From NCBI GenBank assembly GCA_964431605.1, contig CAYSLH010000005.1:1-47139 (forward strand): a stretch of DNA of 47,139 bases, given 5' to 3'. Below, in pieces: positions 38,976 to 47,139 of the stretch. Origin of the DNA: an uncultured Myxococcales bacterium. GTDB lineage: Bacteria; Myxococcota; B64-G9. The notes under the pieces were generated by a model that saw only the letters and a program-made list of their open reading frames with translations, did no database searches and was not told the DNA's origin. Each line of letters begins with the position of its first letter. Position 1 is the stretch's first letter. The translations under genes were made by a program, and so were the position numbers.

Positions 38976-40747
38976 TGAGTCTTCTCCTCTTCTTTTTCGG
39001 GGTTGATCTCGACCCTTTCGACCTTTGCCCCGAAAACCCTGATCGCCTCCTGAACCGCAGGGTGTTCCATGGCCAGTTTGCGTTTCTCGTCCATTTCTTT
39101 TTGCCGGGCCTTGTCGGTTTTTTCAGCCAGGCTGGGTGAATCTGATTCCTCTGCGTCTTCTACGGATAATTGTGTCTCGCATCCAAAAAACGTGCTTGCC
39201 ATGCGCTGGATTTCTTTTTTATTGCGGGGCAGCCTAACCTGCTCTCCGAAAAAAGAATCTAGTTCAAAGGCAATTATGATCTGTCCAGGTTCCACCTTCC
39301 GAATTCGAGCATGGGACAAAAAAGATCCGAGAGAAGGGCGTCTGGAATTAATCTCGTCCACGAGTTTCTTCCAGGCATCCATACCCTTGAGCCCAGCGCC
39401 AGGTGAGGATCCAGGTTTAGCAAAGACGTGCTTGGGTTCTGGTTGCGAAGGCGGCTCTTTATTTGGATCGGGCTTTTGTGCCTCGTGTTGTTGCTGGTTT
39501 TGATTCTGGACAGGTCGAGGGTGTGGTTGTACGGGTTGTCTTGTTCTTGAAAAAGGTTTTGGTGGTGGTGCCCCTGTATTTGTATTGGACGAAGCCTGGC
39601 TATTTATAGCAGCGGCAAGATTCTCAACTCTGGTCAACAGCTCGTCCACCGACACCATGGGTTCGATAACACTCAATCGCAAAAGTGCCGTCTCCAGCAC
39701 CAGCCTGGGATAAGGGTTTTTAGATATTTCCTCCGCTGTCCGGCTCAGCACATCGAACACCTGGTGCCATCTCAGCACAGGAGCCATGGCTGCCTGTTGT
39801 CGAAGTCTGTGTCTCTCATCTTCGAGCAGGTCCACCAGGTCTCCAGGATCGTCCAGTGTGGAAAACAGGATGAGGTTGTGGATATACCAGAGAAGACCTT
39901 CGATAAAACGTTTCAGATCATGGCCTTCGTCGAAAAGCTTCTCTACGAGCCTCATCATTTGTTCCAGGTCGGAATCCAACAGAAAACTTATGAGAGATTC
40001 GAACACCTCGTATCCGGTCAGGTGCAAGGCCATGCGCACCTGTTCCGCTGTGATATGTTCTCCGCCGAACGCGAGCACCTGGTCTGTGAGACTCAACGCA
40101 TCTCGCACGGATCCAGACGCCTGCCTTGAAATGATACGGATACCTTCAGGATCTATGTCCATCTTTTCCATGTCCAGGACATGCTTGATGTGAGCCTGGA
40201 GTTCGTCCGAAGAAATCCTTTTGAAATCGAATCGCTGGCAGCGAGAAAGGACTGTCAATGGAATCTTGTGAGGTTCGGTGGTTGCAAAAATAAACTTTAC
40301 GTGTGCGGGCGGCTCTTCCAATGTCTTTAGAAGAGCGTTGAATGCACTGTTGGAAAGCATGTGAACTTCGTCGATGATATAAATCTTGAACCGACTGCGC
40401 GCAGGCATGTACTGAAGGTTGTCCCGAAGCGCTCTTACATCATCCACACCAGTGTTGGATGCTCCGTCTATTTCAAAGACATCGGGGGACGCACCGGATG
40501 ATATCTCTTTGCAGATAGAGCAGTTGATATCCGGATCTGGAGTCGGGCCTTTTTCACAGTTGAGCGCTTTGGCCAATAGGCGGGCAACCGTGGTCTTTCC
40601 AACTCCCCTTGCCCCTGTGAAAAGATAGGCATGGGCCACTCGTGACAAACGTATGGCATTTTTCAGAGTCTGTATCACCCCCTGCTGTCCGATGACTTCA
40701 TCGAACGTAGAGGGCCTGTACTTTCTGGCAAGGACTAGGTACGACAT
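38972..40747 (-). CDS. dnaX: DNA polymerase III gamma/tau subunit
   Basis: YLVLARKYRP, GARGVGKTT, IDEVHML, SRCQRF. Confidence 0.95.
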   Translation of the reverse strand: MSYLVLARKYRPSTFDEVIGQQGVIQTLKNAIRLSRVAHAYLFTGARGVGKTTVARLLAKALNCEKGPTPDPDINCSICKEISSGASPDVFEIDGASNTGVDDVRALRDNLQYMPARSRFKIYIIDEVHMLSNSAFNALLKTLEEPPAHVKFIFATTEPHKIPLTVLSRCQRFDFKRISSDELQAHIKHVLDMEKMDIDPEGIRIISRQASGSVRDALSLTDQVLAFGGEHITAEQVRMALHLTGYEVFESLISFLLDSDLEQMMRLVEKLFDEGHDLKRFIEGLLWYIHNLILFSTLDDPGDLVDLLEDERHRLRQQAAMAPVLRWHQVFDVLSRTAEEISKNPYPRLVLETALLRLSVIEPMVSVDELLTRVENLAAAINSQASSNTNTGAPPPKPFSRTRQPVQPHPRPVQNQNQQQHEAQKPDPNKEPPSQPEPKHVFAKPGSSPGAGLKGMDAWKKLVDEINSRRPSLGSFLSHARIRKVEPGQIIIAFELDSFFGEQVRLPRNKKEIQRMASTFFGCETQLSVEDAEESDSPSLAEKTDKARQKEMDEKRKLAMEHPAVQEAIRVFGAKVERVEINPEKEEEKTQ

Positions 40748-40783
40748 CGCACCCCCACAGTCAGGAGGGCCTTTTGAAAAAAA

Positions 40784-40889
40784 GGGACGGCCAGGCAACC
40801 CTGCATCACACGGACGATGTTACGACCGCTGCTCCCTTCCGGGCCTGACGGGGTTAGTAACTCGCCGTTGCGCAGGACCCGGCCGTCCC
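40784..40889 (-). ncRNA. ffs: Signal recognition particle RNA (4.5S)
   Basis: TCAGGCCCGGAAGGGAGCAGC helix-8 motif; terminal stem GGGACGGCC/GGCCGTCCC followed by a U-run; upstream of dnaX. Confidence 0.92.
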
Positions 40890-40900
40890 AGGCCGGGATA

Positions 40901-40985
40901 CGGAGAGAGAGGGATTCGAACCCTCGGTAGGTCGCCCTACACACGATTTCCAATCGTGCCCCTTCGGCCTCTCGGGCATCTCTCC
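40901..40985 (-). tRNA. tRNA-Ser(GGA), CCA not encoded
   Basis: GGAGAGA acceptor stem, CACGA-TT-GGA-AA-TCGTG anticodon arm, long variable arm, GGTTCGAATCC. Confidence 0.95.
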
Positions 40986-41021
40986 AAAATAATTTTTACA
41001 ACCGTCAGGCGACGATCATTG

Positions 41022-41052
41022 GTTTATACAAACCGTAGTTTATACCAACCGT
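41022..41052. repeat. Tandem 15-bp imperfect direct repeat GTTTATAC(A/C)AACCGT in a tRNA spacer
   Basis: Copies at 41022-41036 and 41038-41052; partial copy near 40994-41005. Confidence 0.6.
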
Positions 41053-41072
41053 TTTACACGGTTTTTGCACAA

Positions 41073-41158
41073 CGGAGAGAGAGGGATTCGAACCCCCGGT
41101 ACCCAAAGGGTACACTTGCTTTCGAGGCAAGCGCCTTCAACCACTCGGCCATCTCTCC
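41073..41158 (-). tRNA. tRNA-Ser(CGA), CCA not encoded
   Basis: CTTGC-CT-CGA-AA-GCAAG anticodon arm; long variable arm. Confidence 0.95.
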
Positions 41159-41239
41159 TCCACCTCCCGGAGCCTGATCCACACAAGTCATCTGAACCAA
41201 GCCCCAGGCGGATGCCCGGTTGCAAAAAATATATCCCAT

Positions 41240-41713
41240 TCATTTAAAAGAACGATTCGCACGCCTGGCGCGGAAAAACGTCTTCAGTAATTCCGACGCT
41301 TCATTGGCCCTGACTCCACCGCGCACTTCGAATTGGTGATTCATGCGATGGTCGTCGGCCAACGAAAATAAGCTTTCCAATGCACCGGCCTTTGGGTCTG
41401 TGCACCCGAAAACCAACCGGGAGACCCTTGCTGCCAGCATGGCTCCCGCACACATGGGACATGGCTCCAGAGTGACATATACGATGCAGTCGGTAAGGCG
41501 CCATCGTCCCAGTGCTTCAGCCGCCTGGCGAAGGGAGAGAATCTCTGCATGGGCCGTGGGATCCAGGGTGCTTTCCTTGCTGTTGAATCCTTGTCCTACC
41601 ACCTGTCCATCTTTTACGACCACCGCTCCAACAGGAACCTCCCGTGCTTCAAATGCCAGGTACGCCTGTTCGAGGGCCAGGCCCATGAAAAAATCATCCA
41701 CATCCCGTGCCAT
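41240..41713 (-). CDS. tadA: tRNA adenosine(34) deaminase TadA
   Basis: EVPVGAV, DPTAHAE, TLEPCPMCAGA, DPKAGA, FF..RR. Confidence 0.95.
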   Translation of the reverse strand: MARDVDDFFMGLALEQAYLAFEAREVPVGAVVVKDGQVVGQGFNSKESTLDPTAHAEILSLRQAAEALGRWRLTDCIVYVTLEPCPMCAGAMLAARVSRLVFGCTDPKAGALESLFSLADDHRMNHQFEVRGGVRANEASELLKTFFRARRANRSFK

Positions 41714-41731
41714 CAAGGGCTCCTCAAAAAA

Positions 41732-41805
41732 CACGCCCAAGAGGATTCGAACCTCTGACCTTCGGATTCGTAGTCCGACGCTCTATCCAGCTGAGCTATG
41801 GGCGT
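41732..41805 (-). tRNA. tRNA-Arg(ACG), CCA not encoded
   Basis: TAGCTCAGCTGGATAGAGC D-arm; TCGGA-CT-ACG-AA-TCCGA anticodon arm. Confidence 0.95.
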
Positions 41806-41812
41806 ATCAGCA

Positions 41813-41897
41813 CGGAGAGAGGGGGATTCGAACCCCCGGTACCTTGCGGTACACTGGTTTAGCAAACCAGCGCCTTAAGCCTCTCGGCCATCTCTCC
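41813..41897 (-). tRNA. tRNA-Ser(GCT), CCA not encoded
   Basis: CTGGT-TT-GCT-AA-ACCAG anticodon arm; long variable arm. Confidence 0.95.
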
Positions 41898-41962
41898 AAA
41901 TGCGATTTCGATCCATTTTTCACAGAGCATACTTTCTTCCGCCACAGCGCAGCGGGCATAAA

Positions 41963-41991
41963 CGCATAGCATCGGGAATGGGTGATGTCAA
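41963..41991 (-). promoter_or_regulatory. Putative sigma70 promoter of the tRNA-tadA-ffs-dnaX cluster
   Basis: TTGACA-17 nt-TATGCG with TG extension; GC-rich sequence downstream. Confidence 0.45.
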
Positions 41992-42105: not shown

Positions 42106-45100
42106 TTAGTAACACTGCCAGAAAGCGCTGTCAGAAAATACGTACATTACTCCGCTATCGCCAAGGTTTACATCAACGAAACTCTCATCGAACTGCAACA
42201 AAAAAGATCCATCGGTTAATTCATCTGATTGTAACCAAATCGGCTCCCCCAGTACCCTTGCGCCTGCACCAAATATCTCTTGGCAAAGATCATTTTCTCG
42301 AGATTCTTCACACCAAACTCCAGAATCAACATCCACGGCTACCACATCGAATCCCAAGGTTTTTTCGTCTATGGCAACACCTTTGGAAAACACGGGCACA
42401 GCATCTACTTGCTCTTGCGTAGAGAATATTATTTCAGTCTCATTATTGTAGGGCTCATATGCCTCGTTCATGTCCGGGTTTGAAATAAACAGCGATACGG
42501 TACGAAAATCGTCACCTACCCTGTCGCTCAACTCAGGCATTGTCCTTACATCCAAAGTAAACAGGTGATGCATGGGTTCATCGTTGAAAACCGGCCACCG
42601 GTCTTTTCCTACGCCTGGCGCAGGGCCATATCTCACATTGAGATCAGACCCATTTGGGGCTTTATCACTTGGCCTGAGCAGATAGATACGATCCCCTTTT
42701 GCTGCTGTTTGCTTGGCCATGGTGATGATTCTATCTATCTGGTCCATTTCTTTTGGTACCTGTACGCCTTTATCGGCAATTTCCTTTTCGAGTTCATCAA
42801 ATTCGCTTGCGCCCAACGCATCTTTGAGAGCACTCTTACAGCCGGAACCTCCCTTGTTGAGTAAAATCCACTTAATCCACTCTCGCTTGTCCCTCAGTCC
42901 CTGCAAACCCTTTTTGATGGCATCGAGTTGTTCATACTTCAGTGACTTTTCCTTTTGAAGGAGTTGTCGAAACGCTGCCTGAAGAACATCCTGTGTTGGA
43001 TGTAAAGAGATGCACCGAAACGCCCTGTAGTAAGAACTTGTCTGAAGTCCTCTGAGCAGAATCTTTTCCGCGCGATCCCGAGGCAAACGATACACAATGC
43101 GTCTGATGAACGGCTCTAAAAATTGATAGTAATAATCATCCTTCATTACATCGAAACGAACATGCTCGTCCCACGCCGCGTCGAAGTCTCCTTCATCTAT
43201 GATCGTTCGGTTGAGTGCTACGATAATTGCCTGGTACCAACCCTCTTTCTTTTTCTTGGTTTTGGTATGCTTCAAAATCTGTTCGAACCTGGGTATTATG
43301 GATTTACCCAACTCACCTATACCGTATGTCCACCTTTCCCGATATCCTTCAGGCTCAGTCTCCATCATCTCGATGGATCTATCGACAAGGTCACTATCAG
43401 GCAGAAGAAACAGATAGGGAATCACGTAAAGTTTCATATAATCTTGCAGATGTCTTTCGAACACCTCACGAAGTTGTTCCTTTGGCAAACACGACAACGC
43501 TTGTATCATCAGGTTCATGCTTGGCATCCATGAACCTGGATCCGTAGGCAGCAACAGGTCGAACAGACCAGGATCCTGCTTTTTTTCCTCATCCAAACCC
43601 TGCAATGGCTTTTCGAACCAGTCAGTGGAGTATGTAGGTGTTTGCGTATCGAGCGTCAACGCATCTAAAAGCTCTTGTGAAACTTGCTTTCCTTCTTTGC
43701 GACAGCCCATGATCGCAGTGCAGACAGCCGGCCATTTACGCAACCCATGGTCCTCTATTCCAAGAGCTATGGTCTCTAATTCGTCAGAGGTAAAGCGCGG
43801 ATTGCTCAATACATCATGGATTTGGCCCTGGGTGAAACTGTTCAACTGAATCATGTTGCAATACTTGGAAATCGCCTTAGGGTCTGCACGCTCTAGCAAC
43901 TCCTGTATGACAGGAAAATAAATATCTTCATCGAATTTTTCCAGCTTGGCCTCGATCTTTTCAATCCAGGAGTCCATACCACCGAAAAATTCTATATACT
44001 CTTCAAACACAGCTGTGTGCGTATTTCCTTCAAGGAACTTGCGTTCCACCAGGAAAGTCCTGTCATCAGATGGCCAAACGATAGAATCAGTAACACCATG
44101 AGGCAAATAACTATCGACGAGTGTGTCCATATGACCGGCAAGCAACTCCCCCGTGTCTTTTCCGAAACGGGCAAGGCAGGTAGCAACTCCCAATTTCATT
44201 TTTTCAGGTAGTGCGTGCCAAGCTTCATCGATGGGCCCGGGATCTCTCATATAGACATCCATGACCAAATCATCCAACCACTTGTTCCACCCTGGAAGAT
44301 AAGGAAATGTATCTTCGGAGTTTTTTTCAGGTTTGGCCTTTGCAAGAAACTCCATCAGCATTGGTCCATCGAACACTCCCGAAGCATTGGATAGCATATA
44401 CCAAAGTTCAAAATTCGCGGTAATATCAAGTAGGCTTTTCTTCCAAAGAAAAACCAGGTAGCAACCTTCCTGCCCAGACTCAATCGAATATTCGGAAGCT
44501 AAGACGCCCTCTTTGTCATATGCGTCACGTGCCTTCTTTATCTTCTTGGCTATGCGGGCTGCCAATTTTTCATTTTTTCGCAATGACTCAGGTAGACCGT
44601 ATTCGAACGATATTCTTGAAGCTTTGCCATCTTCATCCCAAGTCACATGTTCACCAATGGCCACATCGTGGCACCACTCGCCCTTGAACTTAGGTTTACC
44701 ATCTTTGTAAAATGACACTTCCTGTCCGTCTTTTCTTCTGTACAAAGCTTCCAAAAAATATCGATAGGCGAGTTGATCTTTTGAATACCAAGCTTCGACC
44801 GTACCGGGAACATCCAGGGAGAAAGCATGGGAAATTTTAGCGTACCCCTGCTCATCCCAATATGTCCAATCGCCGATTCTATCTCCATGTTTGAACCATC
44901 CCTTTGTTTTTGGGCTGCCGTCTTGATTCAGCCTACTATATGGTCCGTGCTTTTTTCCTTTATCATCACATTCCCATGTCTCTGCAACAGAGCCGTTTTC
45001 ATACCACCTCGTCCATTTGCCCGAGGCAAGGCCCCTGTCGTTCGTCCCTTGCAATATTTTTGTTCCGTTCTCAGCCCATTCCTGTTCCTCCCCATGGACC

Positions 45101-45570
45101 AGACCCTGCTTCCACTCCTGAGCTTTTTTTATTTGACCATTTGGCCAATATTCCTTCCAAATTCCATGCTTTCGCCAGTTTTCGTATTCACCCTGCTCGA
45201 GTACCTGGTCGGTTCCTGGGTAATGGCTGCTCCACTGACCATCTCTGGGATAATCCTCCGTCTGAGGATATGGAATATCCGGCACGTCGCTGGGCTCTTG
45301 TGTTTTTTCGACCTTGTTTTTCAATATGTCATCGAGGGATTTTCCTCCGATGAGCGCCATCATCTCCGTCTCATCAAGTATGGGAATACTCTTCTGCCTG
45401 GCTTTCTCAAGCTTTGAACCAGGATCCTTTCCGGCTATGAGCGCACTCGTTCTGGAGCTCACGTTTGAAGTAACATCAGCTCCAAGCAATTCAAGCTTTG
45501 CTGTTATATCCTTTCGGGAGCCATCTTTGAACTTCCCGGTCAATACCAGTTTGACTCCTTTCAAACACAT
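42106..45570 (-). CDS. Multidomain protein: N-terminal BRCT, MORN/YwqK-like repeats, helical region, C-terminal DUF1963/YwqG-like domain
   Basis: VLTGKF...R......LGA.V...VS..T..LIAG..PGSKLEKA (BRCT); G.W..YW.NG repeats; LGEPIWLQ...FLLQFD.....NLGDSG.MYVF....FWQC; AAGGAG RBS. Confidence 0.85.
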   Translation of the reverse strand: MCLKGVKLVLTGKFKDGSRKDITAKLELLGADVTSNVSSRTSALIAGKDPGSKLEKARQKSIPILDETEMMALIGGKSLDDILKNKVEKTQEPSDVPDIPYPQTEDYPRDGQWSSHYPGTDQVLEQGEYENWRKHGIWKEYWPNGQIKKAQEWKQGLVHGEEQEWAENGTKILQGTNDRGLASGKWTRWYENGSVAETWECDDKGKKHGPYSRLNQDGSPKTKGWFKHGDRIGDWTYWDEQGYAKISHAFSLDVPGTVEAWYSKDQLAYRYFLEALYRRKDGQEVSFYKDGKPKFKGEWCHDVAIGEHVTWDEDGKASRISFEYGLPESLRKNEKLAARIAKKIKKARDAYDKEGVLASEYSIESGQEGCYLVFLWKKSLLDITANFELWYMLSNASGVFDGPMLMEFLAKAKPEKNSEDTFPYLPGWNKWLDDLVMDVYMRDPGPIDEAWHALPEKMKLGVATCLARFGKDTGELLAGHMDTLVDSYLPHGVTDSIVWPSDDRTFLVERKFLEGNTHTAVFEEYIEFFGGMDSWIEKIEAKLEKFDEDIYFPVIQELLERADPKAISKYCNMIQLNSFTQGQIHDVLSNPRFTSDELETIALGIEDHGLRKWPAVCTAIMGCRKEGKQVSQELLDALTLDTQTPTYSTDWFEKPLQGLDEEKKQDPGLFDLLLPTDPGSWMPSMNLMIQALSCLPKEQLREVFERHLQDYMKLYVIPYLFLLPDSDLVDRSIEMMETEPEGYRERWTYGIGELGKSIIPRFEQILKHTKTKKKKEGWYQAIIVALNRTIIDEGDFDAAWDEHVRFDVMKDDYYYQFLEPFIRRIVYRLPRDRAEKILLRGLQTSSYYRAFRCISLHPTQDVLQAAFRQLLQKEKSLKYEQLDAIKKGLQGLRDKREWIKWILLNKGGSGCKSALKDALGASEFDELEKEIADKGVQVPKEMDQIDRIITMAKQTAAKGDRIYLLRPSDKAPNGSDLNVRYGPAPGVGKDRWPVFNDEPMHHLFTLDVRTMPELSDRVGDDFRTVSLFISNPDMNEAYEPYNNETEIIFSTQEQVDAVPVFSKGVAIDEKTLGFDVVAVDVDSGVWCEESRENDLCQEIFGAGARVLGEPIWLQSDELTDGSFLLQFDESFVDVNLGDSGVMYVFSDSAFWQCY

Positions 45571-45709
45571 AGGAATTCTCCTTGTCCTGATGATCTCAGT
45601 ACTTTGTATACCAAGTCTCAACCCAAGACGTACGGAATTTTTTATATATTTATGTGAACAACAACAGGATTAGTTTCTTCTACAACAACTCTGTCCCAAC
45701 ACTAACAAT

Positions 45710-45728
45710 CCCATGAACCGCTCATGGG
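45710..45728 (-). terminator. Hairpin after the toxin gene
   Basis: CCCATGA/TCATGGG stem; weak U-tract. Confidence 0.45.
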
Positions 45729-45730
45729 CT

Positions 45731-45751
45731 AATTCAGAAATCGTCCGGCCA
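45731..45751. repeat. 21-bp exact direct repeat, copy 2
   Basis: Covers the WPDDF-stop codons of the toxin. Confidence 0.9.
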
Positions 45752-46018
45752 GCGCCTGGAGGCATGGATTATGCGGAGTATCTCTATATGCTTTCCCTTG
45801 ATACGATATGGAACGATGTAGGCTGTTTCCGGAACAATCAGCTCACGAGTATTGGCGACCCTTCCCGGTCCGCCTAATGCCGGATATTCCTTGAGACTTT
45901 CAATTGCTGCCATTATCCGCCTAACCACATCGGCTGCGGCATGGGGATTGTCTGCTGCAATGTACTCGGCAAGATCATTCAGGTTGGCCAACGCGTTTCG
46001 AGTCCACCTATGATGCAT
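45734..46018 (-). CDS. RelE/ParE family toxin
   Basis: WT..A..DL..IA.DNP.AA, P..G..GRV..TREL, Y...YR....IEILRIIH..R.WP. Confidence 0.9.
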   Translation of the reverse strand: MHHRWTRNALANLNDLAEYIAADNPHAAADVVRRIMAAIESLKEYPALGGPGRVANTRELIVPETAYIVPYRIKGKHIEILRIIHASRRWPDDF

Positions 46019-46253
46019 CACTGCTCCACTTTTTGACCACAGCTCTGACTTCCTCATCTGAAGCAAAATTACCGGCATCGGCCTCTTCAAGCCCGGCCTT
46101 GATCTCCTGGATCTGCCATTCCTGGATCTCGATGTATGCCCTGATGGCATCTGCGGCCAACCAAGACTTGCTTCGATCGGTTGCCTTGGCCAGCTTATCC
46201 AGACGCCTTTTTATTTCATTTGGCAACCGAACCGTCATGGTGCTGGTTTCCAT
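46008..46253 (-). CDS. RHH/CopG antitoxin
   Basis: TMTVRL.....RLD.LA..TDRSKSWLA..AI, I.AGL.EADAG.F; overlaps the toxin. Confidence 0.9.
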   Translation of the reverse strand: METSTMTVRLPNEIKRRLDKLAKATDRSKSWLAADAIRAYIEIQEWQIQEIKAGLEEADAGNFASDEEVRAVVKKWSSDAS

Positions 46254-46265
46254 GAAAATCTCCTT

Positions 46266-46290
46266 GTGTTATATGTGCACATTATAACAC
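46266..46290 (-). promoter_or_regulatory. Palindromic TA operator overlapping an extended -10
   Basis: GTGTTAT-A-ATGTGCACAT-ATAACAC near-perfect palindrome containing TGtTATAAT. Confidence 0.75.
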
Positions 46291-46330
46291 CCAGTGGCCT
46301 TTCTCAACTACGCCTGTTTTCCCAGAATCT

Positions 46331-46453
46331 CCTTTTTTGATGGCATTGAGTTGTTCATATTCTAGTGACTTTTCCTTACCTATTTTCATTTTTTCGTAAT
46401 TACTCGGTTAGCCGTCTTGATTCAGCCTACTATATGGTCCGTGTTTTTTCCTT
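46331..46453 (-). pseudogene. Condensed relic made of three collinear fragments of the BRCT-MORN gene
   Basis: 46331-46377 ~ 42908-42954 (42/47 identical); 46383-46415 ~ 44567-44600; 46411-46453 ~ 44917-44960 (33 nt identical). Confidence 0.85.
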
Positions 46454-46460
46454 ACTACCA

Positions 46461-46745
46461 TTACTTTCGCCTAATTAATCGTCGGTAGACTTCTTTTCTG
46501 TGTCCAACACCGATTATATATACCACCACCTCGGTGGCATGGACCTCATAAAGCAATCTGTAGTCAGACACTCTGATTCTGTAGGCACTCTTTCTTCCTT
46601 TCAGCCTCTGAGCAGCCAGGGGAACAGGTTCTGTGGACAGCTTATCTATTATTTGGATGATTCGTTTTTTGGTTCCTGATGGAAGTTTCTCAATTTCAGA
46701 CACGGCAGCCTTGTGTAGCACTACCCTATAGATCATCTTTGACAT
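46461..46745 (-). CDS. RelE/StbE family mRNA interferase toxin
   Basis: I..L...P.P....LKG....YRIRV.DYRLLY......V.I..VGHRKEVY. Confidence 0.92.
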   Translation of the reverse strand: MSKMIYRVVLHKAAVSEIEKLPSGTKKRIIQIIDKLSTEPVPLAAQRLKGRKSAYRIRVSDYRLLYEVHATEVVVYIIGVGHRKEVYRRLIRRK

Positions 46746-46926
46746 GTTCCCAATCTACCCATGGCCCATCACGCCTGTGCTCTATCAAGGCCAAGTCCTG
46801 CGCATCCTCCAGCCAGGTCGCGATTGCATCCGCAACCACTGCCTGTTGCTTGAGACCATGGGTTGCACAAAATTCATCGAGTGCTGCCTTTAGCTCATCA
46901 TCGATTCTGTGAGTCATAGTAACCAT
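46726..46926 (-). CDS. RHH antitoxin (RelB-like)
   Basis: RID.ELK..LD.FC...GLK...VV..AI...LED..DL, W..VK..L; overlaps the toxin. Confidence 0.85.
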   Translation of the reverse strand: MVTMTHRIDDELKAALDEFCATHGLKQQAVVADAIATWLEDAQDLALIEHRRDGPWVDWEHVKDDL

Positions 46927-46932
46927 GATTCG

Positions 46933-46961
46933 ATGATATAGAGTTTTGCAATCTTTTGCAA
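46933..46961 (-). promoter_or_regulatory. sigma70 promoter predicted to give a leaderless antitoxin mRNA; TTGCAAAA direct repeats as candidate operator
   Basis: TTGCAA-17 nt-TATCAT-6 nt-ATG; no Shine-Dalgarno. Confidence 0.6.
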
Positions 46962-47023
46962 GCAAAATGTTTTACCAGGAGCCACTCTCGCTAATCCAGA
47001 TCAGGACATCTCCAGCCCTTGCA

Positions 47024-47139
47024 TCAGAATTTCCTGTGCAACCATGCCAATGAAATCAGCAGGCCCAATAGCAATAGGATATTTCCTCTTGCCCTACCGC
47101 CTGATTCACATCCACATCCACTGCCGCCTCCAGTGCCAG
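47024..47139 (-). CDS. C-terminus of a MYXO-CTERM surface protein (partial)
   Basis: Not in the ORF track. Manual translation GTGGGSGCGCESGGRARGNILLLLGLLISLAWLHRKF*: GCGC motif, TM helix, basic tail. Confidence 0.8.
   Translation of the reverse strand, partial: GTGGGSGCGCESGGRARGNILLLLGLLISLAWLHRKF

Follow-up and report, generated by a model that had tools for sequence, protein, structure and literature searches.

Bacterial intergenic spacers are known to hold remnants of pseudogenes, and a deletional bias has been described alongside them (PMC3164680, PMC2916853, PMC2817411). Such a remnant, as these reports outline it, is a short, disabled, non-coding leftover of a gene that has been shaped by deletions, and it is the closest described counterpart of the locus considered here, a short spacer in the genome of an uncultured member of the Myxococcales that is made up of pieces of a neighboring gene. 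The locus departs from this known kind in several respects: the parent gene is intact and lies only 0.7 kb away; the spacer consists of three directly abutting islands of 28-44 nt which together span 2 kb of that gene; the islands fit exactly between two toxin-antitoxin (TA) modules; and the genome, at 5.2 Mb, is of free-living size rather than reduced.

A second class of described events involves the joining of short sequences at microhomologies. In Acinetobacter baylyi, short ectopic segments of the same genome are joined in this way during SPDIR (10.1101/2023.11.22.568220), and short-range template switching has also been reported (PMC7954356). In the form in which these sources present them, both processes bring short ectopic segments of the same genome, joined at microhomologies, into a new place, much as seen in our spacer; here, however, three serial, collinear segments come from one gene and have diverged from it by about 8%, with indels. 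Among the matches listed in literature searches on SPDIR, on gene remnants and deletional bias, and on template switching, there was no multi-piece collinear relic located between TA modules.

Partial gene copies can also be put to use. MgPar and pilS are examples of silent donor cassettes. In Anaplasma, functional msp2 pseudogenes are silent donor cassettes for segmental gene conversion (PMC2789410). So described, donor cassettes are, like the spacer, partial, non-expressed, collinear gene fragments stored nearby, but the spacer would be a single tiny cassette carrying a stop codon, and the available strain variants display no tract-wise exchange. Finally, in the DGR of a Bordetella phage, as summarized in the source, the variable repeat lies at the 3′ end of the target, and a GC-rich IMH and a hairpin come after it (PMC3240598). 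The spacer resembles a DGR template repeat in being a non-coding near-copy of part of a gene, close to that gene, and in that the mismatches fall mostly on adenines of the copy. Unlike a template/variable repeat pair, however, it comprises three segments with indels and non-adenine mismatches, faces parts of the gene other than its 3′ end, and is associated with neither an IMH-like element nor a reverse transcriptase (RT) detectable in the genome.

Gene-derived pieces in the spacer

The window (the whole stretch of DNA analyzed, 47,139 nucleotides) contains, on its minus strand, a gene for a protein with BRCT and MORN domains. Positions 46334-46453, possibly extending to 46468, consist of three abutting pieces derived from this gene, all on one strand and all in the order and orientation of their sources. 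A first-pass annotation, made from the letters alone, had described such a three-part match, its collinearity with the gene and a CCGT microhomology at one of the junctions, and all of these features were recovered here. BLASTN with word size 7 (46280-46480 against the window), local alignments and a search of the whole genome (5.17 Mb, 477 contigs) returned the identical three matches, with no further match above chance level in any of the 477 contigs, and in dinucleotide-preserving shuffles aligned to the gene the observed score was reached in 0 of 300 for every piece.

Piece C (46411-46453, minus strand) corresponds to gene codons 221-235 (source 44917-44960) and agrees with them in 43 of 44 alignment columns (E = 3.8e-14 genome-wide); it has no substitutions, and a 1-nt deletion in an A-run divides it into 33 + 10 nt of perfect identity. 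A doubtful extension to 46468 (source to 44973), with 10 of 13 positions matching after a 2-nt indel, would overlap the stop codon of the toxin gene of the adjacent module, TA2. Piece B (46383-46410, minus strand; codons 343-352) derives from 44567-44595, or to 44603 through the shared CCGT at its junction with piece C; when aligned as 46383-46411(18) to 44567-44595(603), it is 84-91% identical depending on the chosen ends (E = 0.005). It carries 4 substitutions, one of which turns TCA into the stop codon TAA, and lies in a frame different from that of pieces A and C. The next 5 bases (46378-46382, minus strand) fit neither source cleanly. Piece A (46334-46377, or 46331-46377, minus strand; codons 890-904) matches 42911(08)-42954 in 40 of 44 columns (E = 6.8e-11), from which it differs by 4 substitutions and an additional A in an A-run, and abuts the right end of the other module, TA1; an apparent extension of piece A to 46320 is of weak similarity and belongs to that module.

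The junction between pieces B and C falls on the shared CCGT, a direct repeat that is present in the gene and there extends to 6 of 7 bases, and includes a 1-nt deletion. A-runs occur at the borders of the pieces, and a AAGGAAAA-type motif is common to the starts of pieces C and A. The copy has a stop codon in piece B and 3-4 indels, and its pieces lie in two frames. The only open reading frame (ORF) of the spacer has 35 codons, is not preceded by a Shine-Dalgarno sequence and extends into the TA1 promoter. Given the stop codon, the frame shifts and the lack of a ribosome-binding site or start codon of its own, the copy encodes nothing. The spacer thus combines significant similarity to the gene, in gene order and orientation, with disabling lesions and the absence of any coding potential, as expected of a gene relic.

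The source gene and its surroundings

The source gene (42106-45621, minus strand) is an ORF of 1171 codons, with a called product of 1154 aa starting from the ATG at 45570. Its product contains a BRCT domain and a MORN_2 repeat recognized by Pfam, whereas about 800 residues have no Pfam match: across residues 341-1171, no significant similarity was detected, the best being to VRR_NUC (E = 0.15), far below the cut-off. Domains of the BRCT and MORN_2 types are typical of intracellular proteins. The family is small, with about 14 full-length relatives among 5.8 billion proteins, the closest of which are 47-51% identical. Orthologues are 41-51% identical, and their loci are not syntenic; the orthologue loci of the genomes G001 and G002 have no neighbors in common with the window and are not flanked by clusters of gene fragments. 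Gene-derived pieces are likewise missing from the four other spacers that surround the gene and the modules.

The three source segments are rich in adenine on the coding strand, at 0.43-0.45 compared with 0.30 for the gene (91st-95th percentile), and a random triple of segments equals the observed A-richness with P = 0.0025. Possibly, template switching or deletion end points were located at A-runs.

The G+C content of the 42-47 kb part of the window is 0.45-0.48, lower than in the preceding 19-42 kb (mostly 0.50-0.55). A cluster of RNA genes (40786-41898, minus strand) contains a small SRP RNA gene (40786-40884), upstream of dnaX, along with tRNA-Ser(GGA), tRNA-Ser(CGA) and tRNA-Ser(GCT). A tadA-like deaminase gene (41240-41740, minus strand) is followed directly by the gene for tRNA-Arg(ACG), the substrate of TadA. 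Two plus-strand ORFs that overlap the RNA genes and tadA, 40653-41177 and 41343-41969, are probably spurious.

The flanking modules

The spacer is bordered by two TA pairs, as had been noted in the first-pass annotation, for which the protein families can now be named. TA1 (45730-46333, minus strand) is predicted to encode a ParE toxin and an RHH antitoxin and is homologous to cassettes found elsewhere. Its antitoxin gene occupies 46008-46253 on the minus strand (RHH_1, E = 1.3e-7), and the toxin gene, on the same strand, ends at 45734 and probably starts near 46018, as suggested by comparison with an ORF of 94 aa in the genome G014. An extended -10 promoter with a palindromic operator was recognized by eye at about 46262-46300 (minus strand), and a terminator-like hairpin (45710-45728) follows the toxin gene just outside the region of module homology. 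TA2 (46463-46971, minus strand) comprises a ParE toxin gene at 46461-46745 and an RHH-like antitoxin gene at 46726-46965. Both flanking toxins match the ParE_toxin family (E = 1.3e-17 and 9.7e-12), which is the basis of their predicted function. For the second antitoxin, the match to DUF6290 is weak (E = 0.006, below the cut-off), but the protein is 34% identical to the N-terminus of the first, which carries the RHH domain. Small antitoxin genes overlapping or abutting genes for ParE-family toxins are thus present on either side of the spacer, an arrangement that identifies the flanks as putative type II TA modules. Upstream of TA2, on the minus strand, lies a gene for a protein of 1186 aa (G000:C5:47106-50666; L028:107-3667) with PKD, lamin-tail and bacterial Ig-like domains, which is unrelated to the BRCT-MORN gene.

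A DNA search of 18 genomes of the same family produced separate counterparts for the two modules. TA1 is 86% identical over 604-606 nt to a region of G014 (G014:C5:11045-11648), a genome of a different genus in which the context is unrelated, and a cassette in the genome G009 matches the TA1 region at 73% identity. For TA2, the counterpart (G010:C455:6126-6631; 71% identity) belongs to a third genus. Because the two cassettes are matched in different other genera, TA1 and TA2 are taken to be separate modules with horizontal mobility. Homology with the other genera stops at 46333 for TA1 and at 46463 for TA2, so that the gene-derived pieces exactly fill the 129-nt gap. Thus, as judged from these comparisons, the patchwork is the exact 129-nt spacer between two TA modules that are mobile independently of each other, the homologies of the modules being new relative to the first pass.

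The TA1 homologue in G014 is flanked by an exact direct repeat of 16 nt (E = 9e-5; L033:1440-1455 and L033:2100-2115, G014:C5), which overlaps the 3′ ends of two convergent ORFs and looks like a target duplication resulting from insertion of the cassette. A 10-nt core of this repeat is also found in the hairpin to the left of TA1 in the window (45718-45727). No filler comparable to our spacer was found in the flanks of the TA homologues in G009, G010, G014 and G015, G014 having only the 16-nt repeat.

Two further arrangements were considered and rejected. A tandem duplication of a unit comprising a TA pair and the gene is contradicted by the modules themselves, whose toxins are not significantly similar (E = 0.54) and whose antitoxins share 34% identity over only 38 residues. 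If, on the other hand, TA1 had been inserted into a copy of the gene, a fourth gene piece would be expected beyond TA1; none is present in 45571-45733, for which 79 of 200 shuffles reach the alignment score with the gene, and three other spacers are equally devoid of a piece.

Reproducibility and strain variation

The first-pass annotation had called for a check of the junctions against misassembly. At the level of contigs, the joins are reproduced in an independent metagenome contig and in contigs from another assembler. The metagenome contig (L021; JGI, 3165 nt) aligns without gaps to window positions 43970-47133 with 6 mismatches, and a further mismatch is at its terminal base (43969), outside the alignment; its spacer is identical letter for letter, and none of the mismatches falls within the spacer or the facing gene segments. 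In the Logan contigs of run X1, one contig covers 44920-46440, spanning both the A|B and B|C junctions, and another covers 46414-46971; neither differs from the window in the spacer. The only breaks are within the exact 33-nt repeat, where a 31-mer graph is bound to be interrupted. Run X1 may be the source sample, in which case it is independent as an assembly but not as a sample. At 45987, 45992, 46584 and 46587, the window, L021 and X1 present three different combinations of single-nucleotide variants, indicating that the populations carrying the same spacer differ at least slightly.

An assembler error, in the form of a chimeric join at short repeats, is therefore extremely improbable as the origin of the spacer: L021, which has variants elsewhere, and the X1 contigs carry the same letters, and chimeric joins do not create the substitutions and indels that separate the pieces from their sources. 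The fragmentation of the metagenomic bin (477 contigs) and the presence of exact repeats elsewhere in the genome that look like assembler artefacts are what would speak for such a join. These repeats are of 55 nt, spaced 155 nt from start to start, and occur in six contigs of the genome (G000), namely C1:90396-90605, C3:31883-32092, C60:6548-6757, C64:13653-13862, C198:4376-4585 and C309:4209-4418; they are probably assembler artefacts (duplications of k-mer length) rather than biology.

The gene itself varies in the strain X2, represented by contigs of the run of that name. The X2 contigs shown (8 of 11) leave 46128-46429 uncovered and are uninformative with respect to the spacer, but, among these 8 of 11 contigs, divergence in the gene is mosaic, with 10 and 9 differences (2.6-2.8%) in two contigs and none in three others. 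The two divergent contigs (42846-43237 and 44512-44830) are those that contain the sources of pieces A and B, and the contig with the source of piece C has no differences. At position 42940, X2 carries the base of the copy, in a contig of 392 nt with 10 differences, whereas the copy-specific bases at 42937 and 42939, located 1-3 nt away, do not appear in it. Altogether, 1 of the 8 copy-specific bases is found in the X2 gene and none in L021 and X1, although comparison at the contig level hides rare variants. The majority of the X2 variants are located outside the facing segments, with none in 44567-44603. The difference at 42940 is thus ordinary strain divergence, with no sign of mutagenic homing or of a conversion tract.

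Substitutions and signals in the spacer

The confident cores of the three pieces contain 8 substitutions (on the coding strand, four G>A, two C>A, one A>G and one T>C), 6 of which place an A in the copy; with the doubtful extensions included, the count is 8 of 12. The first-pass annotation had counted 7 adenines among 9 substitutions and saw in this bias a possible echo of a DGR. The excess of adenines stands as a count, at 6 of 8 in the cores, but is not significant in a copy that is 49% A on the coding strand (P = 0.13; P = 0.08 for 7 of 9), where 6 of the 60 adenines differ from the gene. By type, 4 of the 8 substitutions are synonymous-type changes at third positions and 4 are replacements or a stop, a mix that fits change in both the constrained gene and the unconstrained copy. 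All 13 aligned homologues retain P344, so that the change at this residue is derived in the copy; the homologues, at 47-51% identity, are too distant to polarize the other differences. Divergence is uneven, with 0 substitutions in 43 positions of the piece C core compared with 8 in 73 for A and B (Fisher P = 0.025), a difference that is lost when the doubtful extension of piece C is included (P = 0.35).

No indication of an RNA or recombination signal was obtained. Positions 45500-47139 match no Rfam family at E ≤ 1, and the spacer folds no better than its shuffles on either strand (z = +0.84 and -1.44) and contains neither a terminator nor a structured-RNA signal. Promoter-like sites are at chance level (4 compared with 2.5 expected), and none is placed so as to transcribe the spacer specifically. 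An attC site was considered as a candidate and rejected, given that the spacer holds neither hairpin-forming imperfect repeats nor any inverted repeat, in line with the same folding scores.

Discussion

The spacer between the two modules is very probably a non-functional, gene-derived scar, whichever history produced it. The best explanation, and one that we moderately favor, is the stepwise erosion of a single contiguous, partial copy of the BRCT-MORN gene, the reading that the first-pass annotation had offered as the simplest, a duplicate worn away by deletions. It continues to account best for the collinearity, the junction microhomology, the stop codon and frame shifts, and the occurrence of the same spacer in three assemblies. 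The starting copy would have been contiguous and would have included at least codons about 217-905; it could have been a duplicate or, alternatively, a displaced allele diverged by roughly 8-10%. Illegitimate deletions would then have removed its 5′ and 3′ parts together with two internal stretches, of 0.3 kb and 1.6 kb, with at least one of these deletions, that at the B|C junction, occurring at a short direct repeat. An origin from one contiguous template is indicated by the shared order and orientation of the pieces, which independent pieces would display in about 1 case in 24 (an estimate rather than a computed value), and the polymorphism at 42940 fits ordinary allelic divergence. The persistence of so small a remnant could reflect its position: larger deletions would cut into the flanking ParE/antitoxin addiction modules and be counter-selected, such that its removal would require a deletion lying entirely within the 129 nt. 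We infer the existence of an earlier, longer copy, the order of these events and the sheltering effect of the modules from what remains of the locus.

Several observations sit uneasily with erosion. No longer or intermediate copy was found in the genome, in one scan of metagenomes, which returned only the identical form, or at the loci of relatives. Four deletions that leave three abutting islands of 28-44 nt are not the most economical route to such a structure, and a single complex event would explain the small size of the pieces better. Divergence is also uneven, to the extent that the contrast survives the doubtful extension of piece C, and the A-richness of the source segments (P = 0.0025) would not be predicted from simple random erosion.

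The main alternative, therefore, is that no long second copy ever existed and that the spacer is filler made in one event, a history that we consider unlikely but that retains appreciable weight. Under this scenario, a single pass of copying along the gene, with two forward template switches at microhomologies, took place during the illegitimate joining of TA1, or of another segment, to the neighborhood of TA2, along the lines of serial template switching, copy choice, MMBIR or SPDIR. The very small pieces (28-44 nt), their direct abutment and their exact fit into the gap between the module boundaries are as this scenario would have them, as is the junction on a 6/7 microhomology, although deletion between direct repeats leaves the same signature, so that the junctions cannot separate the two histories. 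The A-runs and the AAGGAAAA-type motif at the borders, together with the A-rich sources, look as if the switches had been made in slippery tracts; the distance to the template, which is on the same strand, is 1.4-3.5 kb; and TA1 is evidently mobile, its 86% identical counterpart in G014 being flanked by the 16-nt duplication. In Acinetobacter baylyi, moreover, short ectopic single strands are described as integrating at microhomologies (10.1101/2023.11.22.568220). The substitutions (about 8%) and indels, however, have to be added afterwards, through later mutation or error-prone synthesis, and multi-template synthesis does not require strict collinearity and a single orientation. Nor does comparable patchwork accompany the TA homologues in G009, G010, G014 and G015, or occur elsewhere in the genome, where self-comparison yielded 81 short local repeat pairs, nearly all of them domain or tandem repeats, and no second collinear arrangement of several distant pieces.

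A functional role is far harder to reconcile with the data than either history of a scar. The spacer could act on the gene as a plus-strand antisense RNA pairing at three sites of the BRCT-MORN mRNA or as a silent donor cassette, and the 33 + 10 nt of perfect identity in piece C might in principle suffice for RecA pairing or an RNA duplex. It could also be argued that, among the 8 of 11 X2 contigs shown, those with the sources of A and B are the most divergent, that the contig with the C source has no differences, and that X2 carries the base of the copy at 42940. We nevertheless regard such an element as very improbable. The genome holds only one cassette, which bears a stop codon and frame shifts; the presence of 1 of 8 copy bases in X2, with 42937 and 42939 unchanged, is not a conversion tract; most X2 variants fall outside the facing segments, and none in 44567-44603; no fitting promoter-like site, RNA structure signal or Rfam family was detected; the element is not conserved beside orthologues; and a protein with BRCT and MORN_2 domains, being presumably intracellular, is no obvious target of antigenic variation. 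Preservation of the spacer for its action on the parent gene is just as hard to credit, even if the addiction modules would shield an antisense or donor element from deletion in the same way as debris.

A DGR-like arrangement, in which the adenines of a multi-segment template are mutagenized on copying into the gene, can be set aside as having next to no likelihood, despite the 6 of 8 core substitutions with an A in the copy and the strain variability of one such site (42940): it fails on the RT, the indels, the mismatches, the position of the facing segments and the IMH. The observation made in the first pass that the window lacks an RT is borne out and extends to the rest of the genome, where RVT_1 (PF00078) has no matches (neither of 2 candidates passed; the genome is 92.8% complete, and the same search found the domain in 3 of 14 genomes used as controls). 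The accompanying search for Avd in this 92.8% complete genome returned a sole four-helix-bundle hit (PF05635), outside any DGR context, on the 2.5-kb contig C419, with no RT nearby, no similarity to the BRCT-MORN gene on that contig, and neighboring ORFs that by eye resemble those for a B12-binding mutase subunit and a MeaB-type GTPase. Copy and gene are unequal in length owing to 3-4 indels, 2 of the 8 substitutions are not at adenines, and the bias toward adenine is within chance (P = 0.13). Furthermore, the facing segments are three in number, separated by 0.3 and 1.6 kb (codons 221-235, 343-352 and 890-904 of 1171), none of them at the 3′ end of the gene, and no GC-only 14-mer resembling an IMH follows any of them.

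The finding is thus ordinary in kind: the spacer is neither a DGR nor an attC site nor a recognizable RNA gene, and an adenine bias in a short, A-rich copy is insufficient to call a DGR. As a relic, the spacer carries little functional weight, its value being that of a clean natural example of how a gene stretch of 2 kb may be reduced to three abutting islands through illegitimate recombination at microhomologies. If the single-event history were true, the locus would record how, in an environmental bacterium, multi-jump template switching accompanied the insertion of a cassette. Under the erosion that we favor, the space between two addiction modules may be a place in which such debris is sheltered.
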